A DNA stretch of 64,000 nt, taken from contig JBDRRF010000045.1 in assembly GCA_043825875.1 (NCBI GenBank), forward strand, positions 1 through 64,000. The letters run 5' to 3'. Shown in pieces: positions 29,229-64,000 of this stretch (position 1 is its first letter; the number at the start of each line of letters is the position of its first letter). The translations under genes and the position numbers were made by a program. Under the pieces are notes generated by a model. It was not told where the DNA came from. It ran no database searches and was given only the letters and a program-made list of their open reading frames with translations. Origin of the DNA: Pseudomonadota bacterium (GTDB taxonomy: Bacteria; Desulfobacterota; Desulfobacteria; Desulfobacterales; RPRI01).

Positions 29229-29951
29229 ATGGCTTTTGTTACTGATAATATTGATTTGATTGAATCAGCGAAAAAAAATGATGAGTATGCATGGGAAAAG
29301 CTTATTAAAGATTATAAAATTTTCATTTATGGTATTATTTTGAAATATCATTTCAAACACAGAGAAAAAAAAGATGTATTTCAAGAAATTGCTTTAAAGC
29401 TTGTTAGTGCTATCAAAGATTATGATCCCTCTATATCTCGATTTTCTACTTTTGTAAGTATTATTGCAAATAGAAAGTGTATAGATATTTTAAGAGAAGA
29501 AAATTATCAACTATTTATAATAACAGATAATACTTTAATTGCAATGAAATATGCAGGTTTTAGTGATGAAATTATTAACAATTTAAATAAAATAAAAAAT
29601 CATGAATTTACAGAAGAAAGCAAATTTTTGGAAGTATTGGAAGAATTGCTTGACAATAAAGCTGACCTAGATATTTCGACAATTTTGAAATATACCAAAA
29701 AATACAAAGGTCGTTATCCACAGACTCCAGATAATATAGATATTCACGGAGAAGTTTTTAACATTATTGATAAGATATATCTTGAAGAGATACTTAACAA
29801 TTTGCCTGCTGATATAAAGAAGTTATTAATTTATCATTGTAAAGGTTATTCATACAATGAAATTGCAAAATTTATGGAAAAGGATTTTGATTGGGTTAAA
29901 AATAATCTATTTCGTATTAAAAAAAAATCACCTTTGATAAGAAAAAAATGA
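29229..29951 (+). CDS. ECF-type sigma factor with an inserted helical segment
   Basis: Region 2 AWEKLI..DVFQEI..YDPSISRFSTFVSIIANRKCIDILR; region 4 LNNLP..GYSYNEIAKFM..VKNNLFRIKKK; long insert between them. Confidence 0.88.
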   Translation: MAFVTDNIDLIESAKKNDEYAWEKLIKDYKIFIYGIILKYHFKHREKKDVFQEIALKLVSAIKDYDPSISRFSTFVSIIANRKCIDILREENYQLFIITDNTLIAMKYAGFSDEIINNLNKIKNHEFTEESKFLEVLEELLDNKADLDISTILKYTKKYKGRYPQTPDNIDIHGEVFNIIDKIYLEEILNNLPADIKKLLIYHCKGYSYNEIAKFMEKDFDWVKNNLFRIKKKSPLIRKK

Positions 29952-29978
29952 GAATTATTTTGATCGAGAACGAATATT

Positions 29979-31061
29979 ATGAATGTTAAAAATAAAAAAG
30001 AACATTTAACCGAAGAAGATATCCTTCTATATTGCGATAATGAATTATCACATGAAGAGAAAACACGAATACTTCATCATCTTGATTTTTGTGATAGTTG
30101 TAAACAGTTGGTTGATAATTATAGATCATTTTTGAATATTATGAATGACATGATTCCGAATGGTCTATATTCAAAAAATAAGGAAGATTGCTTAGGATAT
30201 ATGGATATTGCCAATTATATCGAAAACAATATATCTCATAAAAAGAGAAAAAAAATTGAAGAGCACTTGAGTACTTGTGGCTACTGTTTGCACATTGTAA
30301 TTGAGAGTATGCTTTCTCTTAAAGAAAACGTTATTGAAAAGGAACCACAATTTTTATTAGATAATATTATAAATTCCATTTTTATTAGATTGCGCGAAGA
30401 AAAAGCTAAGATTTTGTTGAGTGACTTAAAGAGCTTTACCGAAAAATGTCCACTAAGTATTCGTAGTTTTTTTATTGAAAAAAAATCAAATATAGAAATT
30501 ATTATTAAAAATACTTTTGCCTTACCCACACCACGGTATGCATTTGTTTTTGGTGAGCATAGAGCAAATGTTTTAAGTCCTTTTGGAAAAGTCCGATTTC
30601 CAGTGGTATTTAAATGGATTCCATTTGAAAAAGCAGATAATTATATAGTTTCAATAGATGATATTGGCTGGGAAGGATACACTTCAAAATCAAAAATTAA
30701 AATTTTAGAAGAAGAAATCAAAATAAAATATAAAAATGAATATATGTGGCGACTAAAAGTTAGAAAAGGAGATGAAATCCTTGATGAAATAACAGGTTTT
30801 ATTCAAATTGCCACAGAAGAAGAAATAAAAGAACTACAGCATATTGAGATCTATTTAAAAAATATTGAGTCAAAGCACAACCGGTTGATGATTTGGGCTA
30901 TAATTCTTGAAGAAAAAGAATTTTATATAGAGGCAATACAGAATTACATAAAAGCTTATGAAATAGATCCAACAAATGGTTTAGCATTCAGAATTGCTTA
31001 TTGCTATGATTGCTTGGAATTAGAAGAACTCCGGGATGAATGGAATAAAAAAATTAGATAA
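29979..31061 (+). CDS. Soluble anti-sigma factor with two zinc-binding (HxxxCxxC) domains and C-terminal beta/TPR region
   Basis: HLTEEDILLY..HHLDFCDSC and EHLSTCGYC; no clear TM; C-terminal TPR-like EAIQNYIKAYEIDP; follows the sigma gene. Confidence 0.8.
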   Translation: MNVKNKKEHLTEEDILLYCDNELSHEEKTRILHHLDFCDSCKQLVDNYRSFLNIMNDMIPNGLYSKNKEDCLGYMDIANYIENNISHKKRKKIEEHLSTCGYCLHIVIESMLSLKENVIEKEPQFLLDNIINSIFIRLREEKAKILLSDLKSFTEKCPLSIRSFFIEKKSNIEIIIKNTFALPTPRYAFVFGEHRANVLSPFGKVRFPVVFKWIPFEKADNYIVSIDDIGWEGYTSKSKIKILEEEIKIKYKNEYMWRLKVRKGDEILDEITGFIQIATEEEIKELQHIEIYLKNIESKHNRLMIWAIILEEKEFYIEAIQNYIKAYEIDPTNGLAFRIAYCYDCLELEELRDEWNKKIR

Positions 31062-31167
31062 TACGTTTTAAAAAACTATATGGCGTTGTTGCATACATAG
31101 CATTTTTGGTGCATCCATTTTTAGCTTAATAGCTGATGATCTTCATAATTATATAAAAGCTCTTTCA

Positions 31168-32841
31168 ATGAAAATAAGAAAATCAAATAAAAAAAATATC
31201 ATTTTTTTTACTAAAATTATATTTTTTCAATCTTATATTGGCATAGCCTCTTGTGTTTACTATTTAATTGCTGCTGTCAAAAACTTAATTAAATACTTGC
31301 CATCTCTTTCCAATAAAAAAGACCTTAATATAAATTGCATTCCCAAAGCACGTTCAGAAATATTAAGAATTCTAAAAATTTTAAAAACCAGTCAATCTTT
31401 AGAAAATAAATTGCCATGGCTATGCAAAAAAAATGAATTTAGCCTTAAAGAACTAATAACGATTAGGGTAAACTATATAAAGAATACGTGGAAATCGTAT
31501 TTCTCATATAACATTTTTTTTCGTGAAGATATTAAAAATATTTATCGGTGGGGAATTTTATCTTCTTATCCAGACCAACCAATTCATTCTTTTTTTGATT
31601 TTGGAAATTTAATACAGCATTTTCCTGATGATATTAAAAGTGAGTATTTTTCATATAATATAGAAAGACATGATCAAAAGAACTTAAGTTTTATAGGGAA
31701 AAATCCCCCAATCTTATGGGATATTCTTCAGCATGTAGTGGAATTGCAGACAGAGTGGGCAGGGGGTCTGTTTTTTCTGCCTATATCATCAACTTCAGAA
31801 AAAGATTGTGATGATGCTTTTTATAAACCTCTATATCGTTTCTCGGTACATTTGATTGGTGGATTAGTGATTATTGCTGAAATGCTTTCTTCTATTGAGT
31901 CAGGTTTGGCATTTACTTCAGCATACTCAAAAAAGTTATCTGCAGATATAACCAAATTCTTTAATAAATTGGATGAGCCTAAAGTGTTATTAGCAGATTT
32001 GATTTTTATTCATAGCGCTGTCCAAAAAATCTGGCTAATTATAAATGGGCGGTCAAAGGATGAAATTACAAAATTTAACAATCGTAATTTAATTTATAAT
32101 ACTGATATTATGAACTTTAAAAAAAAATTTCCTATAGCCGAGCAGTTTAAAAAATTATTTTTAAATAATCCTGTAACTATTTTGTTATTTTTTGATTTTT
32201 TATCCGATTTAAAATTGTTAAATCCTTTAGATAAAAATCAATACAAGATTTTATGTCATATTTTTAAAAATGAAATAGATGAAGAAGTTTTATATTGGCT
32301 GGCAAACCATACATATTCAAGTTTAATGAACCCTTATATGAAAGAGGGACTAACTTGTTTTGGAAACAGGATTGCTCAAATACCGGCGGAACTATTCCAG
32401 TATAGAATTAACTGTTTTGGGGTACTTGTTAATACTCTATTTGAAGAACTTGAAGAAAATAAAGAAGTATTTGAAAATTTTTCGTGTTTTTGCATTTTTT
32501 TTTACGACATTCTATTAAGAGATTGGATGATAGAAATTCCTGCTGATGAATTTCCTAATCATCCTCTTCCAGAGCTTCAACCTGAAGTACTGCAGGATCA
32601 TTACCCAAATGAAATTGTTGAAAGTGAAACGCTTTTTAGCCGCATTTTAATTTGGTGCAAAGTTAAGGAAAGTAATTCTTTCAAATCTGCATTTTCTACT
32701 TTTCTTAGTCCAATTAATAAACTGATAAATTTTAATAAAAGACCGAATTCAGAAAGCATAAAAGAAACCATGGTGAGTTTTAAGCAGATATATAAAAAAG
32801 CTAAGCCTTATCTTACAGAACTAATTATTTCAGAAGATTAA
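31168..32841 (+). CDS. Hypothetical protein
   Basis: 557-aa ORF in the AT-rich co-directional cluster, 2 bp from the next gene; start uncertain. Confidence 0.75.
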   Translation: MKIRKSNKKNIIFFTKIIFFQSYIGIASCVYYLIAAVKNLIKYLPSLSNKKDLNINCIPKARSEILRILKILKTSQSLENKLPWLCKKNEFSLKELITIRVNYIKNTWKSYFSYNIFFREDIKNIYRWGILSSYPDQPIHSFFDFGNLIQHFPDDIKSEYFSYNIERHDQKNLSFIGKNPPILWDILQHVVELQTEWAGGLFFLPISSTSEKDCDDAFYKPLYRFSVHLIGGLVIIAEMLSSIESGLAFTSAYSKKLSADITKFFNKLDEPKVLLADLIFIHSAVQKIWLIINGRSKDEITKFNNRNLIYNTDIMNFKKKFPIAEQFKKLFLNNPVTILLFFDFLSDLKLLNPLDKNQYKILCHIFKNEIDEEVLYWLANHTYSSLMNPYMKEGLTCFGNRIAQIPAELFQYRINCFGVLVNTLFEELEENKEVFENFSCFCIFFYDILLRDWMIEIPADEFPNHPLPELQPEVLQDHYPNEIVESETLFSRILIWCKVKESNSFKSAFSTFLSPINKLINFNKRPNSESIKETMVSFKQIYKKAKPYLTELIISED

Positions 32842-32843
32842 TT

Positions 32844-34730
32844 ATGACGTTACAAAATATAGATAGTATCAAGGAAGGTAAAAAATTTGAAAAACTTCAA
32901 GAAGTGTTGAGTGAAAGCCTCAGATTTTCAGTGTATCCCAAAGAGTTGATTGATCGATTTGGGATTCTATCTCTTGATACTATGAAGGCACTTTCAATTT
33001 CGGGATATTACATTCCGCTTTTTGCCTCCATCGATATATTTTGTTCTTTTTTTTCACCGTCACTACAATACTATCAAAGTATAAATCCACTGCCGGTAAA
33101 ACATCTAAATTTTAGCAAATTTTATTGTGAAAGCTATATTAGATTTTTAAAGGCAATTCGAGACATCCCAGCATTACAAAAGATGGCTAATTTATTTTAC
33201 TTTGAGAAATATAGGTACAAAAATAAAAATAGTGCATCTGAATTATATTTTGATAACAATCTATTCTATGAAACTTTTGTATTTATTATAAGAGATATGG
33301 CAATGGTATGTCCACTGACAAATATCCAACAAGTATATGATCCAAGTATTATTTCAATTATAACATGGGATGATTTATATATTCCATCACGTAAAAAATT
33401 TGCATTAGAAGAGGAAATAAATATTTTAAAAAGGTTGGGATTTGATAATTTTATTCCCTCTCCCTTCTCTGGAAATCATAGTTGGGGAAAAAAAATAGAT
33501 ATTCTTCTTAAATCCTTTTTCCTAGTGTCTCAAAATCAAAACACTAAATATAATCAGCCAATACACCATATAAACGATCTGGCTAAAGAAAAAAAGACAC
33601 AAAAGGTTGAGCTGCTTAACAGGAATAAAAAAATCATTAAAGACATTTCGAAAACATCTTATCTCTTTGATTATAAGCTTATTGACCTTTATATACTTAA
33701 TGTTGATGATTTCAACCCGAGCGACAAATTGCGAAGAAAAATTGCACAGCTACAAAATATTTCCCGTCAGGCTATTGAGAAAAGTCCATTTAATACAGAA
33801 TATACGGATCCAAAAGATAGTGGAGTCATCAACACATTTTACCTGTCGATGGATGACGATTTATTTAAGCTTAAATATCTTGAGAAGCAACCCATATTCT
33901 TTGGCAACCAACCTCCGATAAAAGAGCAGGAAAATTTGGGGGTTAGATTTTGTATGTTGGAAGATATAAAATCTATTAGTGAAAAAATCTGCGAGAAAAA
34001 TCGCTATCGATACCCCCATATAACTGTACATAAGCTTATCTCAATCCTGTTGTGTAGCGACATAATAAAATATCTTGGTAAAGTACCTGAATTAAATATA
34101 ATAATGGATCTTATTATTTATACACTTTACTTCGATTCTGAAAAAGAGTCTTCTACTAAAAAAGTTCGCTTAAGCATGAAAGATCTAATAAATAGTAGGA
34201 AAGAAGTGGATCTTACCAATCTCAAAGAATTGCAGGAGAAGCTATTCCTTGAAGCACCGCTATTAAAAACATATAGCTTTGTACCCAATATTAATAACTA
34301 TAATATATTATTCAACAGTATTAATGATTCTGATGATTCGTTAATGCGGATGTCGGGATGTAATCGTGTACTAAATTTATTTTTTGGTTGGGGTGGTTTA
34401 TATCTGCAGGAGAATGCACTTAATAATTCTCAACAGGAAAAAAAGAATAAACACGACGAAGTAAACAAAAATGAAAATGAAGAGGAATACAATTTATCCA
34501 CAAACATAAGGGATATACGTGCTAATAGCCAAAATATTTCACTTTACTCTCCAAACACCTACGTTATTGAAACTAATTGTAAATACCTTTTAACATCAGG
34601 TCATGGATTAAATAGAACTGTTTTTAAGACTCAGATTAAAGATGATAAGCTATCTAAATTTTTAAATAATACAAGAGAATATTTTTTAAACATATTAGTC
34701 GATGAAGCCATTGAACGAAAGTGCAGCTAA
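32844..34730 (+). CDS. Hypothetical protein, possibly a degenerate vWA-type MoxR partner
   Basis: 628-aa ORF; DDDLFKLKYLEKQPIFF loosely recalls the pre-vWA motif of MoxR-associated proteins (weak); no MIDAS motif seen. Confidence 0.7.
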   Translation: MTLQNIDSIKEGKKFEKLQEVLSESLRFSVYPKELIDRFGILSLDTMKALSISGYYIPLFASIDIFCSFFSPSLQYYQSINPLPVKHLNFSKFYCESYIRFLKAIRDIPALQKMANLFYFEKYRYKNKNSASELYFDNNLFYETFVFIIRDMAMVCPLTNIQQVYDPSIISIITWDDLYIPSRKKFALEEEINILKRLGFDNFIPSPFSGNHSWGKKIDILLKSFFLVSQNQNTKYNQPIHHINDLAKEKKTQKVELLNRNKKIIKDISKTSYLFDYKLIDLYILNVDDFNPSDKLRRKIAQLQNISRQAIEKSPFNTEYTDPKDSGVINTFYLSMDDDLFKLKYLEKQPIFFGNQPPIKEQENLGVRFCMLEDIKSISEKICEKNRYRYPHITVHKLISILLCSDIIKYLGKVPELNIIMDLIIYTLYFDSEKESSTKKVRLSMKDLINSRKEVDLTNLKELQEKLFLEAPLLKTYSFVPNINNYNILFNSINDSDDSLMRMSGCNRVLNLFFGWGGLYLQENALNNSQQEKKNKHDEVNKNENEEEYNLSTNIRDIRANSQNISLYSPNTYVIETNCKYLLTSGHGLNRTVFKTQIKDDKLSKFLNNTREYFLNILVDEAIERKCS

Positions 34731-37275
34731 TAAAAAGGACATTGTTGTGACAGATCATACTTTGCTTAAAAGCTTATATTACGCAGAAAAAGATAATCAA
34801 AAAGCTTGCATTGCAACAGAATCACCCGGATTACTCATTAATCTGCTACTAAATATAATGCCTGGGAAAATTTCCACAGTTCTATCATATCCCTATTATA
34901 CAAACGCTTCTCAAAATGTATATATGATAAAAATACAGGAAATACCTCATGAGGCAATCAACGATGACAGTATTGACTTGCACTTAAAGCGTCTACAGTC
35001 TTGCGGTAATATTATATATGCAGATAAATCTTTATTTGGAAATAGGCAACAAGGAACTATTGCTGATCTTGCTAAGATGCTAGTACCAAACCAAATAGAG
35101 ATTGAACGCTCATATGAAAATCTTGTTTTCTGGTGTGATGGGGCAAGAATATATAATAATGTTATAGATGTTCTTTTTAGTCTAACAGTTAAAAACCTCA
35201 GAGTAGCCAGGCTAAAATTTGGAAACAATGAAAGATATTTGGTAAGGGCACAAGGTATCTCTTCGCCTGTCATTTTATCAAAATTTGGAAATATGGAAGG
35301 GCTTACAATGTTTTATAAGCCCTTGGTATTATCTGAAATATGGATCCAGTGGGGTTGGCGATATGATTTTGTTGATGCATCTACTTATGAAATTCTTAGA
35401 GAGAAAAATGAGACTATATTCATCTTTAGAAACGGTTCTTCAGAAAAAATAAAGTCTGATAGCATAAATTATATTCCTCTAATAAAATACATGAATTTGA
35501 AATTCGATATGATACAAGTTCATGAAGCAGCCCCAAGAGATTTTAACTATCATATCGAAAGAGAGTTAAAACTAAAAAAAAACACTCTGACTGATTGGGC
35601 TAGGATAGAGATAGAAGATTTACTTCAACAAGAACAGGAAATTAGGGAGAGAATTGAATGGCTTAAAAATATGGAATCGGTTTTTACCACTCAGGTTTCT
35701 TATAAAGTAATGTATTATCCTTTTAGTCCTCACAAAAAAGACCCAATATTTCCAACATATTTTTTTAGGAAGCAACACCTTCGTCAACTCCGCCAGTTGA
35801 TGTTTTACTATGGTTCGGTAGGATCATTGGGTGATGGAGTTATGGTAACCACCTGTAGTTTTGTAGAGCAATCTAAACTTGGTAGATACAATATTGATAA
35901 GAAATATTATCCCCGTAGAGGTATAGTATTCGAGACTTGTAAAGATTGGATGGCCTATTCAGGATTAAGAGTTTTGATTCCCGAAGGATTTGATCTTTAT
36001 CCTTACCTTGAAGTAGAAGAAGAAGACAAAACGGTTATAGTAAATGCTTTTCTGGAAACTGTAGGTTGTACAATCAACAGTAGAAAAAGGGAGGATATTA
36101 GAGCAAACCCTGAGAGATATCTTTATTTCATTTTTCCAAAACAAACTAATATTATTTCAGATTGGGAAAAGACAGATCTTGAAGCTATTATAATTCATGA
36201 AAAGGAATTTCGCAAATTCGATATCAAAATCGCAAATATGGGTATTCATTTTGCCATGAACGAAGAGGATAAAAATATAGCAAATCAAATATTTAACAAT
36301 CATGTTACAGAAAATATTAAAGAACAGTTTAATAGCGTTATTACCCAGTTGACGCAATACTTAGAGGATGCTTTTCAATATGAGCGACGTAAATTCAAGA
36401 AAAAAATCGAAGAATTTAATACTTATATTGAGAATCAAGATCAAAATTTTAAGGAATCAAAAAAAGCTGTTAATGATTCTGTTGGCAGGATAAAAAAATC
36501 AGAGAAAATCATTACTAGTTATGAAATATATCTTAGTAATTTTGTTGAAAGCTATACTTCAAAGATTCAAAGTAGTACTAAAAATATTGAAAATTTCATT
36601 AATGAGATTAAAGCTTTTATGCAGACGCTTAACAATGATATTGATGCTATAAATAGAAATAATAGTGAAGAATTAAATACAAAACTTTCTTTATTAAAAG
36701 AAGTAAAAAAGAATACATCTGAAACAATAGAAGAAATTATAAAACTTCAAGATAAACGAACTAAAAGCAATAAATCCTTACAAGAGATCAGAGATCTTGA
36801 AAACAAATTTTCGGATAAATATAAAGAGGCAAAATGGAACCGTTTAGAAATAAAAGATAATTTAAATAAAATTTGGGAGATTGAAAAATCTTTTGAGGGC
36901 TTAAAATTAGAAATCGATAAAATATCTGAGCATATGCAAAAAATTGCTGAATCATCTTACCGTAGTAGTGTATATTCAGTATCATCAAATAAGCACCATG
37001 AAATTAATGTGTGGGTTGATGGTATTATATCGCATATGAACGAATTTAAGACAATGGCCAACAATCAGACAATAGTCAGCCATGATTTAACAAAGATTAT
37101 AAATCAATTTAGAGAACCCATTGATCATATTACTGAAGATATTAAAACTTCACTTCCTCATTTAATACGAAGAGAAGAGACTATCAACCAAAAAAAAATA
37201 TTTTTCAAGGAAGCAAACAAATATTTAAAAGAACGTATTTCTAGTATTTATGAACTATATAAGAATTTTTCATAG
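34702..37275 (+). CDS. Hypothetical protein with long C-terminal coiled coil
   Basis: 857 aa; globular N-half (EIWIQWGWRY, LRVLIPEGFDLYP); heptad-rich from about aa 520; overlaps the upstream stop. Confidence 0.8.
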   Translation: MKPLNESAANKKDIVVTDHTLLKSLYYAEKDNQKACIATESPGLLINLLLNIMPGKISTVLSYPYYTNASQNVYMIKIQEIPHEAINDDSIDLHLKRLQSCGNIIYADKSLFGNRQQGTIADLAKMLVPNQIEIERSYENLVFWCDGARIYNNVIDVLFSLTVKNLRVARLKFGNNERYLVRAQGISSPVILSKFGNMEGLTMFYKPLVLSEIWIQWGWRYDFVDASTYEILREKNETIFIFRNGSSEKIKSDSINYIPLIKYMNLKFDMIQVHEAAPRDFNYHIERELKLKKNTLTDWARIEIEDLLQQEQEIRERIEWLKNMESVFTTQVSYKVMYYPFSPHKKDPIFPTYFFRKQHLRQLRQLMFYYGSVGSLGDGVMVTTCSFVEQSKLGRYNIDKKYYPRRGIVFETCKDWMAYSGLRVLIPEGFDLYPYLEVEEEDKTVIVNAFLETVGCTINSRKREDIRANPERYLYFIFPKQTNIISDWEKTDLEAIIIHEKEFRKFDIKIANMGIHFAMNEEDKNIANQIFNNHVTENIKEQFNSVITQLTQYLEDAFQYERRKFKKKIEEFNTYIENQDQNFKESKKAVNDSVGRIKKSEKIITSYEIYLSNFVESYTSKIQSSTKNIENFINEIKAFMQTLNNDIDAINRNNSEELNTKLSLLKEVKKNTSETIEEIIKLQDKRTKSNKSLQEIRDLENKFSDKYKEAKWNRLEIKDNLNKIWEIEKSFEGLKLEIDKISEHMQKIAESSYRSSVYSVSSNKHHEINVWVDGIISHMNEFKTMANNQTIVSHDLTKIINQFREPIDHITEDIKTSLPHLIRREETINQKKIFFKEANKYLKERISSIYELYKNFS

Positions 37276-37308
37276 TGAATTTCAAGTTAAAAAGGGCAGG
37301 ATTATTTT

Positions 37309-37953
37309 ATGGAAGAAATAATGAATACTGAACAATCAACTGACTTAATAAATGATGAAGAATTGTGTAAGTTGGTAACTAATGCAATAGAAAAAAAAGA
37401 AACTTTTAAAAATAATATGTCACACTTTATAGGATATACACAAAAAATAATTAATGACCGACAACTTGAGATACATGAACAAAACAATATCAAAACAGAC
37501 AGACAAGAAGCTAATAATAATGGGAATAACTGGTCAAATTTAAAGCTTGTTAAAACAAAACATCAGGTAAAAAACCGGTTTGATGAACTGATGGAAGGGC
37601 TTTCTATTATAAATTACAAGAACCTTAGTAAATTTCGTATGGCTGGCAAAGAAGGTGTATTAACAATACGTCAAGATATTAATGTGGTAAAAAAAGAGTA
37701 TAGAGAAAATTTGGAACACTTAAGTGAAATAAGATCTTTGATAAAAAGATGTTATATGCATCTCGATGAATATTTATTGAATAAAGATCTGGCCTGCTTG
37801 GCTGACTTATATTTAAAAGAAAAAAATAATGAGTGTGAAATAGATTTGTGGTTACAAGATACAAAATGCATAATTAATATGGTTGATATTGTTTATTCAT
37901 ATTTACTAAATAGGGTTGTTAAGACAACTGAAAAAGGATTTGTTGAAGGCTAA
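37309..37953 (+). CDS. Hypothetical helical protein
   Basis: 214-aa ORF with RBS (GCAGGA) in the cluster. Confidence 0.75.
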   Translation: MEEIMNTEQSTDLINDEELCKLVTNAIEKKETFKNNMSHFIGYTQKIINDRQLEIHEQNNIKTDRQEANNNGNNWSNLKLVKTKHQVKNRFDELMEGLSIINYKNLSKFRMAGKEGVLTIRQDINVVKKEYRENLEHLSEIRSLIKRCYMHLDEYLLNKDLACLADLYLKEKNNECEIDLWLQDTKCIINMVDIVYSYLLNRVVKTTEKGFVEG

Positions 37954-37969
37954 TTAGAAAGATATTGTT

Positions 37970-40080: not shown

Positions 40081-40133
40081 GCAGAAAATCAGAACTTTAA
40101 AGCCATAATAAAATAGAAGCAATTGAGGAACTG

Positions 40134-47798: not shown

Positions 47799-47871
47799 CT
47801 TTTAATAATATTAATAGAATCGAAACTTTTTTTAATATAATTTTTAAAACAAATAAATCGGTAACAATCAT

Positions 47872-53807: not shown

Positions 53808-53818
53808 GGAGCAGTAAT

Positions 53819-54319
53819 ATGAATAGAAAAATACAAATTTTTATTATAATAGTCTTACTTGCCTTAACAGGAAGTATCTTGCAATGGGGTTTGATAAGCC
53901 ATGGCCCATTTTATGCCCATGCAGGTGATAAATTAGACTGGGAAAAAGGCAGTGAAGGCCGGGATAATCCTTCTGATGGTTATTATAATATATTATTTAA
54001 AACAGAGAATCTACTTTTGAAAGTATGCATTTTTGTTTTAATAGTACTGGTACTTTATATTTTATTCTGGACAATTTTTAATTTCCGCATCAAACAAAAC
54101 AAATCTCCAGCAAAAGCCTTTACCGTTTTTTTCTCACTTTTCATGCTAAGCATAATTCCGGCAGTATTTATCTGTTTTTCTGAATATGCCATGTTACAGA
54201 CGTATGACAGCCAAATGACATATTTCTCACAGATCAACTGGATATATGTCGGCTTGTTTTGTTGCATTTGGGTTCCCCTATCCATTGGGATGACATCTTT
54301 TTTAAAAGGTAGAACGTAG
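53819..54319 (+). CDS. Membrane protein (about 4 TM)
   Basis: Four hydrophobic segments; RBS AAGGAG; immediately upstream of the tubulin-like gene. Confidence 0.75.
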   Translation: MNRKIQIFIIIVLLALTGSILQWGLISHGPFYAHAGDKLDWEKGSEGRDNPSDGYYNILFKTENLLLKVCIFVLIVLVLYILFWTIFNFRIKQNKSPAKAFTVFFSLFMLSIIPAVFICFSEYAMLQTYDSQMTYFSQINWIYVGLFCCIWVPLSIGMTSFLKGRT

Positions 54320-54345
54320 TCAAATCAAAACATCAGGAGACAAAA

Positions 54346-57300: not shown

Positions 57301-57801
57301 TTAATTGAAGCACTGATGCTCGGTATTTTGGATTATGATAAAGAAAAAGGAACGCTTAATTTTCTACCACCTTTAGGCGATGTGCGGCTTGATAATATTA
57401 TACTGGGTAAAAGTTTCCACCGAGCAGTACAGATATTATCGATGAACAATAAATATCATAATATTCTTACAGACCAGATCGAAAAAAGAAAAGCCACCAT
57501 AAAATCACAAGGGCGCGATCTTAATTTTGAAATACTCATTCTAATCAACCACTATCAAAATAATGTCTATTTACCTCTTCAGAGGGGAGGCTATGGACTT
57601 GTTACCAATGAAAAGAGCAACACCCAAATTCTTTTAGACGGTTTGAGAGAGCAATACAGGCAGGATTCGATATCGCAGACTGGGAAACAAATTGATTGGG
57701 AGAAAATTCAACAACAAACCGATACCATAGATGAAATTTCAGATGTTTTTCCTTTTAAAGAAAAAGAAGCAAAGGCTGATTTAAGAATGCTGAAGGTTTA
57801 G
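54346..57801 (+). CDS. Tubulin/FtsZ-like GTPase (Tubulin_2-type) with long helical C-terminus
   Basis: TLIIGLGGSGKE, WIDTD, GAGQVRPCGRLAF, tubulin signature SSIGGGTGAGMLID, ANGYAALMELDY; about 780-aa helical extension. Confidence 0.9.
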   Translation: MKTELRYGNAQQGNQLFNISPTLIIGLGGSGKEVLMRLRRLFYMDTKTTGLPIIEYLWIDTDPRRQDISGKDYDAISKKLYFESPEIIDAEVQPDEINHYFNRKNRYQHIFEWLHPSISDLGDNMLKSGAGQVRPCGRLAFFHHYNTISQVINQKINRISNANAYKETLSKGYIVDNNRLDAYIVSSIGGGTGAGMLIDCAFLLKNLQANINNIGMLFLPTVFDNIPGINDTFRSKIHANGYAALMELDYFMAPNVGTNIVNANFPRFTFKWDGQEHEIAAPPFLNAYMIDAKNSSNKALQNNTELFQMVAEAMYLEFSKSKFGDNKRSIRSNLTQFLNDETRFYDTDAEGNEIYSQYFPNRYFSFGLSSIKLDIARKKNAAAYFLAQSILGLWDSGKPAKNGVSTEVKQAFRKYDGEVWNYKSMREHFTKDDDKQQCLDNFYKNKIQQDFELIGKRIQDQFRHNTVKEMFDFYETRLKDTFNEIIEDVENDIWHKQINNINTSLGPNGSHANQINKNAESCFDDMKISFFTEFNKFIALPGELENKKGREQAAQFLKESVAKLKSIKGEDFDSRKYDSEKENSFKDHEKPGKDENISKQLQFLVEARQIKAPLYCKTSVGYHQNAVDAKLKQYISDVENKLQNIIDLMKDALLEWCEIRYHNVVCEKAWTILDNLCEELSVEVKIGHGADEKTEWRGLSGTLDQYHQGLIRCKKRCKDLFDAYNTEEKQIRNHDIVMDSGEAWYLEKIHRTLRTTYADGNALSWEDILDRETDKYFEDIVNAIPNNMLPEDGIINRKWGFKYLFQELSKLDTYRENKITDHLDYFCKNRLDGFLSDIDADTEFQRDLKYEQILKHITSLSDYYIPSSKWINTIQNDLPSKRIIGIPDLNNFQTFDTAQRITQYAGCDVFKHNPGNLIFYSELAAFPMVGIGGLENSRKFYLEILKNKNFLYHRHLDYTIIDDLRDILPPENETKSLDRYKTGLDLIEALMLGILDYDKEKGTLNFLPPLGDVRLDNIILGKSFHRAVQILSMNNKYHNILTDQIEKRKATIKSQGRDLNFEILILINHYQNNVYLPLQRGGYGLVTNEKSNTQILLDGLREQYRQDSISQTGKQIDWEKIQQQTDTIDEISDVFPFKEKEAKADLRMLKV

Positions 57802-57810
57802 GAGTATCAT

Positions 57811-60546
57811 ATGCTTTGTACCCAATGTGGCTGGATGTTTGATGAAAAAACCGACTGGTTTTGTTCTGGATGTGGGAAAAAAATTCGTGAGATAGCGGTT
57901 GACGATAATAAAACGCAATACACCCTTTATTACGGTAGAGGATCGTCACCTCTTAAAATTTCCATAGAAAATATAGGTGAATTTCCGGTCCAAATAACAA
58001 AATGGCAGTTGGTAAATCTCAAGGCCCTTAAATGTTTATGCGATGGCCGTAAACATGCGCCGGTAGCTCTTTTGAGCAATGATACAAAAGTAATTGAAAT
58101 TAATTTTGACGATTCAGGATTGCCGTTTACCCAAGCAGGAATACTGAAAATTTATGCAGGAATTATTCCACCTATACAAGTTGTTATTATCTGTACTCCT
58201 GTACCGGGCTTTATCTTCCATATTGGGAATGAACTTGTGCGAAACAGCAAGGTTTGCTGTCTTGGCGATCTTTCGAAGGAAATTGAATTGCCCTTAAAAA
58301 TAGAAGTGCGTCATGCGCACCGTGTAAAATGGACTAAGTTCAGGATGTATCCAAAAAATCATCCTGAACGATCTTTTCCCTTACCCAGCGGGTTAGAATT
58401 TCCGGTTGACTTGTTCGAAGGTATTCCATCAGAAATTTGTTGTCCATTAGGAAGAATTACAGGAGCAGAAGTAATTTGCGCTGAATTTCTATTTGAGAAT
58501 TGTCAACCCGAAACTTTTACTATCGATATAATTCCCAAAGCCAAAATTAAGCACGAGCAAGATTTTAACCCCATAAACGAAAATGCATTTATTAAGGGAA
58601 AATCAGGTCCACGAAACATAGAAATATCATTAGTAAATGATGGTGGTGTTGGGGCTGATATTGTTGATATCAAAATTGACAACTTGTCTAAAAGTTGGAT
58701 GAATCTGGTGTTGGCGATAGATAACCCAAAATTGATGCCATACGGTGATTCCAAAAGTAGGTTTGTTATTAAAATAGATCCGGCAATGATTAAGAACACT
58801 CTTGAAGAAGGTCGGATTCAGATTGTTTATAGAGAAGACGATATAAGCAAAATTCAAACCCAGGAAATATTCATCCCAGTTGAAGTAAAATATTCTGAAA
58901 CATTGCCTTTTCCTATTGGAATTGACTTCGGAAACACAAGCACCTGTGTATCCTATTTTAACCCTAAAATAAATGAGTTTGAACTTGTGGCTCTGGATGA
59001 ATTTAATGGTGAAAAAAAATATGAGTTTCCCACCATAATTGAGTTTAATCGATTTTGTGCTCCGGGAGAACATGAATCCGGTACCGGCTTTGGATATGGG
59101 TATTTGCTGGGTGAAACAAGATATGCTGTAGAAGAAAGAGGAGATAATCTATTAAATAGAGCATGGCATTTTAAACAGGGTTTGGGACAAAATAAACCTA
59201 TTAGCAAGCTTGATAGAACACATGGCAGATTGAGACAATTTACAGCAGAAGTTCTAACTAAATATTTTATCAAAGAAGTAATCCAAAGGTTTGAGGAAAA
59301 CACCGGATACGATGTGAAAAGTATTATTCTAACCTATCCTGCCGGCTTTATGGATGACCAAATTAAAAGCCTGAAAAACGTTGTTGAACAGATTAAACCT
59401 GATTTGGAAATTATCACTGAAATAAGTGAACCTGAGGCACTTGCACTGCATTATCTTAATAAAAAGGAAATAATAAAGGATAAAGAAATATTTGCGGTAT
59501 TTGACTATGGCGGAAGCTCGACTGATATTACCATAGGACAGATTAGTTGTGAAGATGGTGAAAAAGAGATCGAAGTATTGGTTAGCATGGGCAGCAACCA
59601 GCTGGGTGGGGACCTTTTGACGTTTGAAATCGCAAAAAGTATTTATAATAAAATCCAGGATGAGTTTAAAAGAACAAAGAAGGAAATCGATATGCTGTTT
59701 CCGATGAAACTGGATGATATTTTTTTAATATCACATTCAGAAAAAGAAACGCGATTTAATTTTATGAATTTAATGAATAAGGCGGAAATGATTAAAACAA
59801 ATAGAGAAGGACTTTATTGGAAGCTATGTGATCATCAAGAAATTCCTGTTGAAATTCATTCCTTTCATAGGGTTAGAGGTCAATTTGAACCAATCCGGGT
59901 CAATTACAATATTGAAGATTTTAAAAATGTAGCAGAAAGATATATACAGCAAGGTCTGAATCACCTCAATGGGATGCTGCAGCATCTTAAGGAGCATGAG
60001 ATTATAGAAAAAAACTGTTTTCTGGATTTCGTGGTGCTGGGAGGAAATTCATCTAGGTTAGAATTAGTTAAAAAATTAGCAAGAGATATTCTTGGACTAG
60101 ATGAAAACAACATTTTCTTTGAAAGCGAAATTACAAAAACCGGTGTGGCATCTGGCGCGGCCCTTTATGGAATGAAAATGCAAGATCCAGACAGTGATAT
60201 TGTTTTTATCAATAATAGACGTGTTCGATATCCAATAGGTATCTACAAGCCTAATTCCTTTGATGTAATATTTCCTGCAGGTGCTCAAATTGGTGCAACT
60301 ATTAAACGACAATGGAAACCGGTCAAATTGTTTCTTTATAGAAATTTGGATCCGTCCAACCTAACCCATTCATCTTTGGAACCTGTGACAGATGTTGGAT
60401 ATGATCTATCCCGGTATAAATCTGATAGTTCTAAAAAAATAACTTTTTATCTGACACTATCGGAAAATGGTGTGAAAATTCAGCCCGAGAATAATGCGGA
60501 ATCATCCAATAATGATTCGGATTTAATAGAGTTTAAATGGTATTGA
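57811..60546 (+). CDS. Atypical Hsp70-family ATPase with N-terminal Zn ribbon and Ig-like domains
   Basis: CTQCG..CSGCG; Ig-like strands to about aa 360; Hsp70 NBD motifs GIDFGNTST, LTYPA, SEPEALA, VFDYGGSSTDI, LGGD, VLGGNSSRL; short C-terminus. Confidence 0.88.
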   Translation: MLCTQCGWMFDEKTDWFCSGCGKKIREIAVDDNKTQYTLYYGRGSSPLKISIENIGEFPVQITKWQLVNLKALKCLCDGRKHAPVALLSNDTKVIEINFDDSGLPFTQAGILKIYAGIIPPIQVVIICTPVPGFIFHIGNELVRNSKVCCLGDLSKEIELPLKIEVRHAHRVKWTKFRMYPKNHPERSFPLPSGLEFPVDLFEGIPSEICCPLGRITGAEVICAEFLFENCQPETFTIDIIPKAKIKHEQDFNPINENAFIKGKSGPRNIEISLVNDGGVGADIVDIKIDNLSKSWMNLVLAIDNPKLMPYGDSKSRFVIKIDPAMIKNTLEEGRIQIVYREDDISKIQTQEIFIPVEVKYSETLPFPIGIDFGNTSTCVSYFNPKINEFELVALDEFNGEKKYEFPTIIEFNRFCAPGEHESGTGFGYGYLLGETRYAVEERGDNLLNRAWHFKQGLGQNKPISKLDRTHGRLRQFTAEVLTKYFIKEVIQRFEENTGYDVKSIILTYPAGFMDDQIKSLKNVVEQIKPDLEIITEISEPEALALHYLNKKEIIKDKEIFAVFDYGGSSTDITIGQISCEDGEKEIEVLVSMGSNQLGGDLLTFEIAKSIYNKIQDEFKRTKKEIDMLFPMKLDDIFLISHSEKETRFNFMNLMNKAEMIKTNREGLYWKLCDHQEIPVEIHSFHRVRGQFEPIRVNYNIEDFKNVAERYIQQGLNHLNGMLQHLKEHEIIEKNCFLDFVVLGGNSSRLELVKKLARDILGLDENNIFFESEITKTGVASGAALYGMKMQDPDSDIVFINNRRVRYPIGIYKPNSFDVIFPAGAQIGATIKRQWKPVKLFLYRNLDPSNLTHSSLEPVTDVGYDLSRYKSDSSKKITFYLTLSENGVKIQPENNAESSNNDSDLIEFKWY

Positions 60547-60560
60547 AATAAGGTGATACA

Positions 60561-61487
60561 ATGTTTGAGCGTCTGCTTAATTGGATAGGAAGAAATTCTA
60601 CTAAAGGTAATAGGCGTACTCATAATATCCCAAGGCCTAATAGTCAAGATTTGCCCTCAAAATTAGATAAATTACTAAGAGAAAGCAGGGGATGGACTGA
60701 TGAAGATCTTAAGGAGATTGTGGAATCAGTTTACTTATTAAATAGCTATTGTTTGAAACTGCGTAATGATTTAAGTCAATTGAACCGTCAGGTAAGTTCT
60801 GCCATAAATAACCAAAACAGTTCCCTTTTTTTAAATCATTCTCAGGAAATAAACAAAAGTAGTATGTCTATAGAACCTTTTTCAAAAATATATGAAGATA
60901 TAGATGTTCAAAACAAATCATTTGTTGAGAAAAAACCTGATAATTTCTCTGCGGATAAATTAAATAACTTACTTATGATTTGCCGGAAATATGAGGAGCT
61001 ATTTGAAGAAGCTATTAAAAGTCTTGATAACAGAAGTTATCAATTGGTTGATAATTTTAACAAAGAGTTTAAAGTACCAATTAATCAAATTCTGGGACAG
61101 AAGTTAAAACTTGAAAAGTCATATCAATATTCTGATCCAAGCAAATACAAAATCTTATTTGAAAATCTTAATAATATTAATTTAGATTCATTGTCTCTAT
61201 CCTTATGTGATGCTCTCGAAATGAAAATTACTCATGGTAAAACAAATGCGGATAATCAGAGTAATCCCATTCTTGAAAAATATATTGGCAAAATAACTGA
61301 AATGTTGGATTGGAAAGTGATAAATCCTGAAGCGGGTTCACTATATAACGAAGCCGAACACGATATCTTTGACCGCCGGCCTGCCGATAATAATAAAAAA
61401 GGTGTGATTTATAAAGTTCACAAAAGAGGATTTAAAGATTCAGGGAATAAAATTCTTTTAAAGGCAAAAGTAGGTATCACAACATAA
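60561..61487 (+). CDS. GrpE-like protein
   Basis: C-terminal VINPEAGSLYNEAEHD..KGVIYKVHKRGFKDSGNKILLKAKVGI matches the GrpE beta-domain pattern; helical N-terminus; follows the Hsp70 gene. Confidence 0.7.
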   Translation: MFERLLNWIGRNSTKGNRRTHNIPRPNSQDLPSKLDKLLRESRGWTDEDLKEIVESVYLLNSYCLKLRNDLSQLNRQVSSAINNQNSSLFLNHSQEINKSSMSIEPFSKIYEDIDVQNKSFVEKKPDNFSADKLNNLLMICRKYEELFEEAIKSLDNRSYQLVDNFNKEFKVPINQILGQKLKLEKSYQYSDPSKYKILFENLNNINLDSLSLSLCDALEMKITHGKTNADNQSNPILEKYIGKITEMLDWKVINPEAGSLYNEAEHDIFDRRPADNNKKGVIYKVHKRGFKDSGNKILLKAKVGITT

Positions 61488-61517
61488 ATAATTATTTAAC
61501 AGGTAGTGTTAATTTAA

Positions 61518-62057
61518 ATGGAAAAAACAGAAATGCTAAAATCGATCGATACAATAGTATCGTCAATCGATCTAAAACTCGAAAAAATTATAGATAAGCA
61601 AGAAGTTAAAAGAGAAGAAACTATCAATGAAGTAAAATTTTTTTTTGATAACCTTGCTGCAAAAATATCTACAACATTTATTGGTGATTTACCGCGTTCA
61701 CTGGAGTTGCTTGAAATTAAAATTGACGAGCTAATAAAGTATCAAGGAGATTTCAGTTCAAGCTTGTCCCAGATTTTGGCAGGATATGAGATTAAAATTG
61801 AAGAACGGATTAAAGAACAAATAAAATTATTTCAGAAAGAATGTATCGATAATCTGAATCAGCATCAAAAAATGCATAACGAAAAGTTAAGTGAGTTTAT
61901 TAGAGCTGTAAATAATTTGTCTAACGTAATTACACAACTGAATAACAGTGTGGACAATTTTGATTCGGAAAGGTTTGAGCCGGCGATGAAACGGCTGGAA
62001 GATACAATAGATAAATTAAGTACAGATAAAAAGAAAGGATTTTTTAAAAGAAAGTAA
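61518..62057 (+). CDS. Coiled-coil hypothetical protein
   Basis: 179 aa heptad-rich; ends KKKGFFKRK (basic/aromatic tail). Confidence 0.75.
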   Translation: MEKTEMLKSIDTIVSSIDLKLEKIIDKQEVKREETINEVKFFFDNLAAKISTTFIGDLPRSLELLEIKIDELIKYQGDFSSSLSQILAGYEIKIEERIKEQIKLFQKECIDNLNQHQKMHNEKLSEFIRAVNNLSNVITQLNNSVDNFDSERFEPAMKRLEDTIDKLSTDKKKGFFKRK

Positions 62058-62059
62058 AA

Positions 62060-64000
62060 ATGACAAGATATGTCAAATCTATAAAATATCTATTAATGAT
62101 AATACTGCGTATATTTTTGATCGTATTGATATCAGTAATAGGGTGCTCATCACCGCTTAATGAAAAATCTATTGTTGAAGAGTTTATTTTTGATAATCAA
62201 GGAAAAATACTTTCGAATGTTAAGCCTGATGGGAGTAAAATAGTTTTCAAATATAATGATAGAGCATTACCTAAAGACATAATACTGCCAGATGATCAAG
62301 TACGTTACGGGTATGATAAAAACGGGAACAGAATCTGGATGGAAAACAAAACCGGCCGTACTGAATATAAATATGATGCACTTGATCGAATAAAAGAAAT
62401 TATATTTAGATACAGTCCTGTGAGAACCATTGAATATGATTATGACCCTTGGGGTAGAATGCATGGGATTATAATAAAACAAGAAGGCCATAAAATATAT
62501 CATATAAAGTATGAATATGACCTTCTGAATAATATTAAAAAAATTATCGACGGCAAAGAAATTATTGAGTTTGATTATGATATTGCACATGGTAAGGTAA
62601 CTCGCAGATTACCTAACGGCATAAAAACAATTTATAATTACTCTCCCGCTGGTATGCTTAAGCTTCTAAAACATTTAAGCCCTCAAAATAAACTCATAGT
62701 CTCCTATCAATATAGTTATGACCATTCTGGTAGGATTATACGGATTATTGAAAAGACATTATCAAATACGCAAATTGTAAACTATCATTGGGATATAAAT
62801 GGTAATCTTAAAAAGTTAATATTACCAGATGGTAGTATAATCTACTATGATTATGATGAGTTCGGAAGACGGTCTTCTTTATCAAGAAAAAATGAAACAA
62901 TTGGTTTTAAATATGATGGTTTTGGAAGGCTTGTACAATCGGGTGTAACCCGATATGGCTGGAATGAAAATGGGAATCTAAGTTCTTATAAAGGCAAAAA
63001 AGACAGCATAGAATTTGATTATACTGCTACTGATATGCTTTCAGAAATAAGGGCAAGGGGTTTCAAATCACAATTCAGGTATGATGGTGACGGCAACCAG
63101 ATTGCAAGTAAAATACAGGATGACATTTCTTTTTATTTGCCGAATCCATTGACACCGCAAGGTAATACACTGGCCGAATTTGATAAGCATGGGAACTTGC
63201 GTTTCACATATCTATATGGGAAAGGATTACTTGGACGTCGCAATTCAAATGGAAGCATGAATTATTGTCTTGAAGATGGTTTTGGCAGAATTCGCAATAT
63301 TTCAGACATAAAAGGGCGAATATTATCTCACCAACAAATGGTCTCTGCAAGAATAGAACGTCGTATTACAGCAGACAGAATGCGTAGTACTTTTGATAGA
63401 AGAATCAAAAAGGCATGGGAACTTATTGAAAAAGGGCAAAGACTGCCATTGCCTTCACAAAGTGAAATAGAAGCTCATGACCGATACTGGACCGAAGGAA
63501 TTTATAACACTTCAGATCCCTATTACAAGATGATTCAATCTCTTGATACGGCGCAGGACATTAGAGACATAGATACTTTTTTTAAAGTGTATGTTTCAAC
63601 TCATTTTCTTATAGCAAACGACATGGTGGTAAGGCCTATTGCAGCTTTAACGCGCGGCTGGGGATCATTTTTTGTTAAACAGACTGCAAGAACAGTTCAT
63701 GATTTATTAACTAATTTTATTGAGTCAGTCTCGTCTGACGGGACTTCCATAACCAAGAACATAAATGAAAAAGGTCTAAGAACGTATGAAGATATAGCGA
63801 GCTGGAGCAAGTTTGCTATAGATATTAATAAAGTATTAACAGATAATTTCTCTACAGAAAATGCACTATTCCGGAAGTTTTTACTTAAGAAGAATACAAG
63901 AGTTGTGTGCCTTGCTGAAGGCAGCCCCAATGGTTTTAATTGGGCTTTGAAGGCAAAATCAATATACACGGTTGTTATAGGACCTGTGCAAACTAAAAGC
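62060..64000 (+). CDS. YD/RHS-repeat lipoprotein (partial; runs off window; not in ORF track)
   Basis: ATG 62060, open to the window end; lipobox VIG-C (aa 29); YD repeats YGYDKNGNR, YKYDALDR, YDYDPWGR, YSYDHSGR, YDYDEFGR, FRYDGDGN; then a non-repeat domain. Confidence 0.9.
   Translation, partial: MTRYVKSIKYLLMIILRIFLIVLISVIGCSSPLNEKSIVEEFIFDNQGKILSNVKPDGSKIVFKYNDRALPKDIILPDDQVRYGYDKNGNRIWMENKTGRTEYKYDALDRIKEIIFRYSPVRTIEYDYDPWGRMHGIIIKQEGHKIYHIKYEYDLLNNIKKIIDGKEIIEFDYDIAHGKVTRRLPNGIKTIYNYSPAGMLKLLKHLSPQNKLIVSYQYSYDHSGRIIRIIEKTLSNTQIVNYHWDINGNLKKLILPDGSIIYYDYDEFGRRSSLSRKNETIGFKYDGFGRLVQSGVTRYGWNENGNLSSYKGKKDSIEFDYTATDMLSEIRARGFKSQFRYDGDGNQIASKIQDDISFYLPNPLTPQGNTLAEFDKHGNLRFTYLYGKGLLGRRNSNGSMNYCLEDGFGRIRNISDIKGRILSHQQMVSARIERRITADRMRSTFDRRIKKAWELIEKGQRLPLPSQSEIEAHDRYWTEGIYNTSDPYYKMIQSLDTAQDIRDIDTFFKVYVSTHFLIANDMVVRPIAALTRGWGSFFVKQTARTVHDLLTNFIESVSSDGTSITKNINEKGLRTYEDIASWSKFAIDINKVLTDNFSTENALFRKFLLKKNTRVVCLAEGSPNGFNWALKAKSIYTVVIGPVQTKS

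Follow-up and report, generated by a model that had tools for sequence, protein, structure and literature searches.

A giant beta-propeller protein and a bpMoxR ATPase encoded beside an FtsZl1-Hsp70 operon: a candidate envelope-spanning conflict system in a Desulfobacterota bacterium

Two kinds of bacterial gene cluster that contain vWA-domain proteins have been predicted computationally, and neither has a tested function. In the first, described by Makarova and Koonin in 2010, proteins of the tubulin-like FtsZl1 family, which is Tubulin_2 in Pfam (PMC2875224; PMC9871819), are encoded in operons with vWA, OmpA and GTPase partners and with families B1-B9 (PMC2875224). The second, ternary systems of MoxR and vWA with beta-propellers, comes from Kaur et al. 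(2020), in whose account it is enigmatic for want of an effector (PMC7159879). Experiments on the Esr pathway of Schaalia odontolytica have shown that epibionts are sensed there by a surface propeller protein encoded together with MoxR and vWA (Wang et al. 2026 preprint, PMC13622651). Here we describe a locus that, with a handful of relatives, appears to join the first two kinds. It lies in the 64,000-nucleotide stretch analysed here (the window), which is positions 1-64000 of a 74,667-bp contig (JBDRRF010000045.1) from a 4.77-Mb Desulfobacterota assembly with a G+C content (GC) of 0.391, and consists of nine genes, g9-g17 (40134-61487), inside a longer block, g1-g19. Sequence comparisons suggest that the two predicted systems, of 2010 and 2020, are combined here into a unit that recurs in a few other bacteria. 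With about even confidence, we read g9-g17 as one conserved envelope-spanning system in which two predicted conflict systems are fused, and its function would most likely be the sensing of envelope threats and defence against them.

The proteins of the block were searched against Pfam (E ≤0.01, also relaxed to E 5), NCBIfam, PADLOC-DB v2 and PHROGs, the last of which added nothing. No Pfam or NCBIfam family was found for g3-g10, g12-g14 or g18, and the assignments in Table 1 therefore draw on family profiles, structural models and hydropathy as well. The best-defined part of the locus is the FtsZl1 gene, g15. It has 263 relatives, with homology over the full length, and G190-G195 are invariant in 16 sequences; a sequence profile found no relative in the Protein Data Bank (PDB). 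To place its neighbours, 162 loci around g15 relatives were fetched and compared with the block proteins by phmmer. Homologues of g16 were present in 46 of these loci, of g13 in 33 (in each case just upstream of FtsZl1), of g12 in 13 and of g14 in two, the two closest. None of g1-g11 or g17-g19 had a phmmer homologue in the 162 loci. Clustering of the neighbours was limited to the 44 loci having an Hsp70-like gene at E < 1e-3, and in these 44 of 162 an order recurs: a protein of ~420 aa, a vWA protein, a third slot filled by a small transmembrane (TM) protein or by a TM region with a fused trypsin domain, FtsZl1, a zinc-ribbon-Hsp70 protein, and GrpE-like plus coiled-coil proteins. The loci come from Latescibacterota, Acidobacteriota, Ignavibacteriota, Planctomycetota and other phyla. 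Of the first-slot clusters, c6 and c15 consist of g12 homologues, and c9 and c30 are matched to g12 by position. Profiles tie in two further genes, as that of g14 matches the positional clusters c10, c11 and c12 (1e-6 to 9e-5) and that of g17 matches c7 (1.5e-8), GrpE being carried by members of c7 and c14. The same set of loci also encodes MotA/ExbB-like proteins with a coiled-coil tail (c4, in 20 of the 44) and OmpA-like proteins (c5, in 19). The recurrent order and the profile links of g14 and g17 show that g12-g17 genuinely belong to the family of FtsZl1-vWA operons (Tubulin_2 in Pfam).

The g12 family has six invariant cysteines, and its profile retrieves BamB and PQQ propellers from the PDB at 1e-9 to 1e-10. 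The vWA domain of g13 is not called by Pfam but is found by family profile against the PDB (8s05_A at 3.9e-10; 5a8j VWA2), and its metal-ion-dependent adhesion site (MIDAS) is intact, with D38, S40, S42, T101 and D121 invariant. The topology is shared by its family: 20 of 21 members have a TM segment at ~420-530, and 15 of 21 an N-terminal hydrophobic segment. The same profile search gave no propeller signal for g13, whose exported part continues beyond the vWA domain (about residues 190-500). In g16, the catalytic residues D372, G374, K455, E540, D565, G567 and D572 are invariant, and the best Foldseek match of its model is DnaK in the ATP-open state (4b9q, 3.6e-26, ~583 columns aligned); no alpha-helical lid was found in g16, and no J-protein was found. 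Together, g16 and g17 provide an actin-fold nucleotide-binding domain (NBD), the catalytic residues, a beta substrate-binding domain (SBD-beta) and a GrpE partner, as expected for an Hsp70 with GrpE, and g17 is probably the nucleotide-exchange factor of g16, judging from its borderline GrpE match. The tubulin-like GTPase, Hsp70, GrpE and vWA proteins named in a preliminary description of the window are thus all recovered. The catalytic motifs of all three nucleoside triphosphatases (NTPases), g11, g15 and g16, are intact. No family match to an OmpA, GTPase-partner or MotA/ExbB protein was obtained in g1-g19.

Some of the related loci depart from this arrangement. In a Latescibacterota chromosome (L012, 9965-14626), FtsZl1 is split into parts of 492 and 687 aa by an opposite-strand open reading frame (ORF) of 336 aa, probably an insertion. 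Five loci of Acidobacteriota type (L036, L042, L109, L113 and L114) carry the Hsp70-GrpE pair upstream of FtsZl1 and, 3' of it, up to eight paralogous zinc-ribbon proteins with varied heads (F5/8 type C, TPR), and they also encode a further vWA protein and an M23 peptidase there. The arrangement resembles an array of binders or effectors in the course of diversification.

The other half of the locus is built around the giant protein g9 and the ATPase g11. HMMER found 33 relatives of the g9 N-terminus, many of them 2415-2753 aa long and homologous over the full length; an earlier blank in a word-indexed search was false. An AlphaFold2 (AF2) model of g9 residues 1-1100, built with 19 relatives (predicted local distance difference test score, pLDDT, 78), shows a TM helix and then four-stranded blades without interruption. 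Foldseek matched this model to the periplasmic tandem-propeller sensors BT4663/BT4673 and to PorZ, LRP2 and DDB1, with tandem-propeller E values of 1e-19 to 1e-15, in line with the giant propeller of the preliminary description. All of 16 family members have a single predicted N-terminal TM segment, and the propeller array is probably extracytoplasmic. BLAST of g9 against itself gave no internal repeats, and no TPR was detected by Pfam even at the relaxed threshold. As to g11, it matches PF20030 with 112 bits (cut-off 27), has the motifs GPPGVAKT (Walker A) and VFLDEV (Walker B) with K112, D188 and E189 invariant, and has 19 close relatives of 417-455 aa at 48-66% identity. It had been described as a RavA-like AAA+ protein; the MoxR AAA+ assignment stands, and the RavA-like match is only partial, at 85.7 bits where the cut-off is 681. 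Since the Pfam family that g11 matches derives from Kaur et al. 2020, the earlier reference to that paper was well chosen. The GTPase-centred type of ternary system that had been named alongside it is not borne out, as neither g1-g19 (DO-GTPase, GAP1 and FNIII, E ≤0.01) nor the scanned neighbour proteins of related loci (DO-GTPase and GAP1) gave a Pfam match. Together, g9 and g11 would constitute a beta-propeller ternary system of the kind described by Kaur et al. in 2020, with g9 as the candidate sensor and third component.

We next asked whether the two halves belong together. Linkage was read from relatives whose longest contigs agree exactly in base pairs. Of 20 giant clusters looked up, 12 showed such a coincidence. 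Giant and MoxR relatives fall on equal-sized contigs in 11 cases (21238, 17474, 24285, 16723, 43398, 354492, 48353, 27088, 33900, 126463 and 28858 bp), giant and FtsZl1 in three (21238, 34354 and 43398 bp), and MoxR and FtsZl1 likewise in three (43398, 11303 and 21238 bp). By a rough estimate, well under one coincidence would be expected by chance among a few hundred pairs and tens of thousands of possible sizes. In Syntrophobacter sp. SbD2, the locus tags give the arrangement directly: SBDP2_330005 is the giant, 330007 MoxR and 330012 FtsZl1, which is the order of g9, g11 and g15. Taken together, the contig coincidences and the SbD2 tags suggest that g9-g17 are one conserved unit and no chance mosaic; within a small clade, g9-g15 and with them g16-g17 would be conserved as a set. 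Pairs of more distant giants and MoxR proteins are compatible with the ordinary beta-propeller type of ternary system (Kaur et al. 2020). Co-occurrence in other genomes had been set beforehand as the test on which the idea of a joint system could fail, and it is observed: relatives of g12, g13, g14, g16 and g17 flank FtsZl1, and relatives of g9, g11 and g15 share contigs.

Other sequence collections were searched as well. A MoxR profile run on 400 genomes of the organism's own phylum returned only other bpMoxR cassettes, without the giant. No member of the g11 MoxR subfamily was found on viral contigs, and plasmid tblastn with g15 and g11 gave distant matches only. Nothing was found at 1e-55 in 401 Planctomycetota genomes, a result that shows little, as only four candidates per genome were scored.

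On the reading of g9-g17 as one system, g9 and g11 would form a sensor and gate half, and the FtsZl1-vWA operon g12-g17, with its dedicated Hsp70 ATPase (g16) and exchange factor (g17), would form the second half. The pair of propeller and vWA proteins, g12 and g13, would be the hinge between them. A ligand or perturbation at the envelope (phage, epibiont, competing cell or damage) would be bound by the propeller array, the vWA MIDAS or both, and g13 and g14 would relay the signal through the membrane. MoxR would then remodel the cytoplasmic side and set a threshold, thereby licensing GTP-dependent assembly of FtsZl1 at the membrane, and the Hsp70/GrpE cycle would build up or dismantle this assembly. 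The outcome could be containment, membrane remodelling or arrest of the cell. We interpret the system in terms of conflict because of its apparent horizontal acquisition, its island neighbours, the arguments of Kaur et al. and the Esr pathway. A more specific proposal is that the beta-propeller MoxR-vWA ternary systems find the output arm that they lack in the FtsZl1-Hsp70-GrpE module: the giant would detect an invader and a MoxR-gated switch would trigger Hsp70-controlled tubulin-like polymerisation at the membrane, with additional wiring to the extracytoplasmic function (ECF) sigma factor and the orphan accessory genes of the block. We consider this proposal unlikely. If it were true that FtsZl1 is the output arm, it would be a cytoskeleton-based immune response in bacteria, and assembly of FtsZl1 on an envelope signal, should it occur, would put a bacterial tubulin-family protein to a new use.

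Several points weigh against the reading of g9-g17 as a single defence system. Eight of the 20 giant clusters show no contig coincidence at all, and equal contig size is indirect evidence of linkage, save for the SbD2 locus tags. Neither MoxR nor the giant was found in any of the 162 FtsZl1 loci by phmmer or profile, so the FtsZl1 core stands without them in every fetched locus and the two halves can work apart. With the vWA domain outside the cytoplasm and MoxR inside it, the two are unlikely to touch directly in the textbook manner. A modelled complex of g11 with g12 scored 0.00, below the mark, and speaks neither for nor against an interaction. The fused vWA-propeller protein that defines bpMoxR systems was not seen. 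PADLOC-DB v2 had no system model for g1-g19 and gave just weak matches to the ZorA coiled coil in g5 and g18. Finally, the FtsZl1 operon was interpreted by Makarova and Koonin in terms of membrane remodelling and not of defence (PMC2875224).

Some of these points could also be accounted for by a chance mosaic of four units: a sigma factor with ORFans, a giant and MoxR pair, an FtsZl1-Hsp70 operon and the YD lipoprotein. Besides the 162 of 162 loci without MoxR or giant, such a mosaic would explain why distant giant and MoxR pairs lie on contigs without a listed FtsZl1 match, and it fits the stepwise rise in GC across the block (0.294 to 0.345) and the tendency of islands to accrete unrelated systems. 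It does not sit well with giant, MoxR and FtsZl1 occurring together, in the same order, on at least three further contigs, or with the ATGA translational coupling of g11 and g12 exactly at the supposed seam. We regard the mosaic as quite improbable.

The membrane-remodelling interpretation of 2010 (PMC2875224) leads to another explanation, namely a cell-biological machine in which an FtsZl1 filament, Hsp70/GrpE and MoxR remodel the membrane or assemble and export the giants g9 and g19. Many components are membrane-bound or exported, three chaperone-type proteins are encoded beside two giant exported proteins, and relatives of the operon carry the MotA/ExbB-like and OmpA-like pairs mentioned above, all of which would suit such a machine. 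On the other hand, cytoplasmic Hsp70 and MoxR cannot chaperone folding outside the membrane, most FtsZl1 operons lack a giant, and the sporadic distribution, the signs of horizontal acquisition and the defence-island neighbourhood all speak against it. This alternative, too, seems to us distinctly doubtful.

The nine-gene system is embedded in a larger block. Exactly 19 + strand ORFs of ≥150 aa lie between 29229 and 64000, and the block runs from 29229 to contig position 67621 (~38 kb), beyond the end of the window. The widest spacings are 134 bp (g10-g11), 106 bp (g2-g3), 73 bp (g9-g10) and 53 bp (g8-g9), and the remaining junctions are ≤33 bp or overlapping. ATGA stop/start overlaps were read directly in the DNA at 38989 (g7/g8) and 50522 (g11/g12), and g12 and g13 overlap by 14 nt. 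The ORF list and the sequence itself thus confirm the co-directional, tightly packed arrangement described initially. The block is also AT-rich, as had been noted: GC is 0.294 in g1-g8, 0.312 in g9-g10, 0.345 in g11-g18 and 0.334 in g19, compared with 0.38-0.42 in the host genes at 0.6-5.4 kb and with a genome median of 0.386 and 1st percentile of 0.347 (377 windows of 11 kb). Scans for promoters and terminators gave no more sites in the block than in shuffled sequence, and on the block two metatranscriptome runs yielded only spurious pieces of 18-24 nt. No paralogues of g1-g18 were found in the organism's own genome by tblastn.

Table 1. Genes of the 19-gene block, with contig coordinates and the basis of each assignment
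Gene	Coordinates	Strand	Product	Basis
g1	29229..29951	+	ECF-type sigma-70 family factor, 240 aa	Sigma70_r2 2.9e-11, r4_2 3.5e-4, TIGR02937 4.4e-18
g2	29979..31061	+	Soluble zf-HC2 anti-sigma factor, 360 aa	zf-HC2 1.5e-11; no TM segment
g3	31168..32841	+	557 aa, weak hydrophobic segments	No Pfam, NCBIfam, PADLOC or PHROGs match; hydropathy
g4	32844..34730	+	Soluble protein, 628 aa	No family match; no PDB sequence match better than E 0.5
g5	34702..37275	+	857 aa, globular N-terminal ~520 aa and C-terminal coiled coil	Weak coiled-coil-type matches only
g6	37309..37953	+	214 aa	No match at E ≤0.01
g7	37970..38992	+	Membrane protein, 340 aa, 4 predicted TM segments	Hydropathy
g8	38989..40080	+	363 aa, start overlaps g7 stop (ATGA)	No family match
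g9	40134..47798	+	Giant protein, 2554 aa, one N-terminal TM anchor and beta-propeller chain	AF2 model, Foldseek, 33 HMMER relatives
g10	47872..49080	+	Bitopic membrane protein, 402 aa, TM 103-121, between g9 and g11	Hydropathy; no family match
g11	49215..50525	+	bpMoxR-type AAA+ ATPase, 436 aa	PF20030 2.7e-32, AAA_5 1.9e-14
g12	50522..51850	+	Cytoplasmic double zinc ribbon and PQQ/BamB-like beta-propeller, 442 aa	Family profile against PDB; ATGA overlap with g11
g13	51837..53807	+	Signal peptide, exported vWA, further exported region, TM 510-528, ~128-aa cytoplasmic tail	Family profile, hydropathy
g14	53819..54319	+	Small 4-TM membrane protein	Hydropathy; direct homologues in L085, L086
g15	54346..57801	+	FtsZl1 / Tubulin_2 GTPase, 1151 aa, GGGTGAG loop	PF13809 2.8e-62 over residues 23-390
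g16	57811..60546	+	Zinc ribbon, three beta-sandwich domains, Hsp70 NBD and SBD-beta-like domain, 911 aa	HSP70 1.2e-14; AF2 pLDDT 78
g17	60561..61487	+	GrpE-like protein, 308 aa	GrpE 7.2e-6, 26.2 bits against cut-off 25.8 (borderline)
g18	61518..62057	+	Coiled-coil protein, 179 aa	Coiled-coil part of MotA/ExbB-type cluster c4 5.5e-7; weak ZorA match
g19	62060..67621 (window part to 64000)	+	YD-repeat lipoprotein, 1853 aa	RHS_repeat 4.2e-29; lipobox

One possibility is that all 38 kb, g1-g19, encode one sigma-controlled machine, with g3-g8 and g10 as structural or assembly parts and the YD lipoprotein as outer anchor or effector. All 19 genes point the same way, no gap between them exceeds 134 bp, terminator-like sites are absent from the intergenic regions, insertion sequences (IS) lie on both sides at 27.5 kb and 68.0 kb, and the tetranucleotide distance between g1-g8 and g9-g10 (0.150) is below that between g1-g8 and any of the 377 genome windows (minimum 0.176). 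However, common composition means co-acquisition, and the shared tetranucleotide use of g1-g8 and g9-g10 accordingly argues for joint acquisition rather than joint function. Homologues of g1-g8, g10, g18 and g19 were found in 0 of the 162 loci by phmmer. The candidate ECF-type promoter word GAAACTTT, considered as common to the intergenic regions, is not enriched (8 found, 6.2 expected). In addition, the SbD2 contig (21,238 bp) has, by its locus tags, just four genes upstream of the giant, whose identities were not seen. A machine comprising the whole block is in our view improbable. The preliminary description had proposed a single trans-envelope multi-NTPase machine, and that proposal is supported for g9-g17 and not supported for the sigma pair, g3-g8, g10, g18 and g19, of which no homologue was found in the related loci. 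The latter genes appear to have been acquired with the block and may be lineage-specific regulators or accessories.

Of these flanking genes, the ECF sigma and anti-sigma pair heads the block as first described. The weak matches of g5 are to ZorA1 (6.7e-5 over residues 529-784, PADLOC) and SMC (NCBIfam), and searches of its residues 1-520 against PDB sequences and the Atlas were empty. Kinship of g5 with ZorA or with the MotA/ExbB cluster c4 was rejected by hhalign, and a MotA-like identity of g7 was likewise rejected (hhalign probability 0.5% against the MotA/ExbB-type cluster). The YD-repeat lipoprotein g19, whose repeats and lipobox bear out its earlier naming, extends past the window; the truncated part already shows RHS/YD repeats (8.5e-25), and g19 has matches to Rhs cores in the PDB. 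Its repeats form two separate blocks, residues 36-430 and 1170-1470. A Pro/Gly-rich linker lies near 735-755, and ~770 residues (760-1160 and 1480-1853) have no recognisable family.

The block sits inside a defence-type island. An IS200 transposase (27534-27968) lies just upstream of the block, and an IS (DUF772 plus DDE transposase) and then a TIR gene follow g19, so that the IS sites given above flank the block. FtsZl1 has 0 close matches among 40 relatives and is present in 4 of 400 genomes of the phylum. These features, with the base composition, indicate that the block was probably acquired horizontally. The island holds further genes of note. The strongest defence-database match in the window is that of a RelA/SpoT-domain protein (23565-24647, -) to the PADLOC candidate family PDC-S33 (1.2e-100). 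A TPR-CHAT (caspase-like) protein of 1276 aa (10635-14465, +) in the same island has an architecture typical of the conflict systems treated by Kaur et al. A fusion of a ParB N-terminal domain, a helix-turn-helix and an N6/N4 DNA methylase (8585-10408, -; PADLOC MTase_II 2.8e-47) adjoins a DNA polymerase III delta'-like AAA protein and a tyrosine integrase (5599-6747), and the integrase may mark the island boundary. The TIR-domain protein (contig 71015-71959, -), just past the IS that closes the cluster, has weak ThsB-like matches. Further out, a 600-aa ORF (2351-4153, +) combines a complete PurD (GARS N, A and C) with a PurE-type AIR carboxylase and looks like a fusion of purine-biosynthesis genes.

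How, then, does the g9-g17 locus compare with described systems? The ZorAB-type stator of Zorya is a MotA/ExbB protein with a long coiled-coil tail together with an OmpA-like protein. Relatives of the FtsZl1 operon carry a MotA_ExbB (c4) and OmpA (c5) pair of this kind, but the block itself has neither, and g5 and g18 match coiled-coil regions only. The YD-repeat protein g19 differs from Rhs/YD polymorphic toxins in having its repeats in two separated blocks, in lacking a DPxGL toxin boundary, and in being followed by an IS rather than an immunity gene.

Much closer are the FtsZl1-vWA operons of Makarova and Koonin (PMC2875224), with which the locus has several features in common. FtsZl1 is ~1150 aa long and begins with a tubulin/FtsZ-like GTPase domain bearing a loop of the GGGTG(S/T)G type (GGGTGAG in g15), the gene next to it codes for a vWA protein that is associated with the membrane and keeps its MIDAS, other membrane proteins are encoded nearby, and the spread over phyla is sporadic. 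The locus differs in that the OmpA-like and diverged P-loop GTPase partners, frequent though not universal there, were not found in the block. Conversely, a text search of that paper and its supplement 6 names no Hsp70-like, GrpE-like, zinc-ribbon-propeller, MoxR or giant-propeller partner. The bpMoxR ternary systems (subsystem 4, PMC7159879) resemble the other half: they have bpMoxR (PF20030), a vWA partner, beta-propellers, no conventional effector domain, and a large third component that carries propellers and crosses the membrane near its variable N-terminus, to which g9 corresponds. In contrast to them, the vWA (g13) and propeller (g12) appear here to be on separate proteins and the vWA is exported, the P-loop of g11 is the ordinary GPPGVAKT where GXXXTAKS is often found, and the TPR of the third component was not detected in g9. 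The attached FtsZl1-Hsp70-GrpE module is a further difference, as the beta-propeller section of Kaur et al. (PMC7159879) mentions neither tubulin nor Hsp70. The same paper describes GAP1-N2 DO-GTPase systems, predicted conflict systems that likewise place tubulin-family proteins, extracellular vWA, Hsp70 and GrpE near the membrane; there, the tubulin and Hsp70 plus GrpE themes are non-overlapping, whereas here they occur together (PMC7159879).

No description of a fusion of giant and MoxR with FtsZl1-Hsp70 was found in full-text literature searches, which did not cover the gene-neighbourhood source data of Kaur et al. The earlier statement that the gene combination resembles no characterised system is thus correct as far as experimental characterisation goes; with both halves predicted computationally in 2010 and 2020, the combination is less unprecedented than it seemed. 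Joining the halves supplies a candidate sensor and gate for FtsZl1 and a candidate output for the effector-less ternary system, all in a compact nine-gene set, g9-g17, with targets for point mutations in three NTPases and a MIDAS site. The sole tested relative found is the Esr pathway (PMC13622651). Its signal reaches transcription by way of a Ser/Thr kinase, a phosphatase and an FHA protein, the pathway includes a transglutaminase and lacks tubulin-like and Hsp70 proteins, and no Pfam match to Pkinase, PP2C, FHA or transglutaminase was obtained in g1-g19. What the two have in common is a beta-propeller sensor encoded with MoxR and vWA, which in Esr is displayed at the surface and triggers a defensive response.

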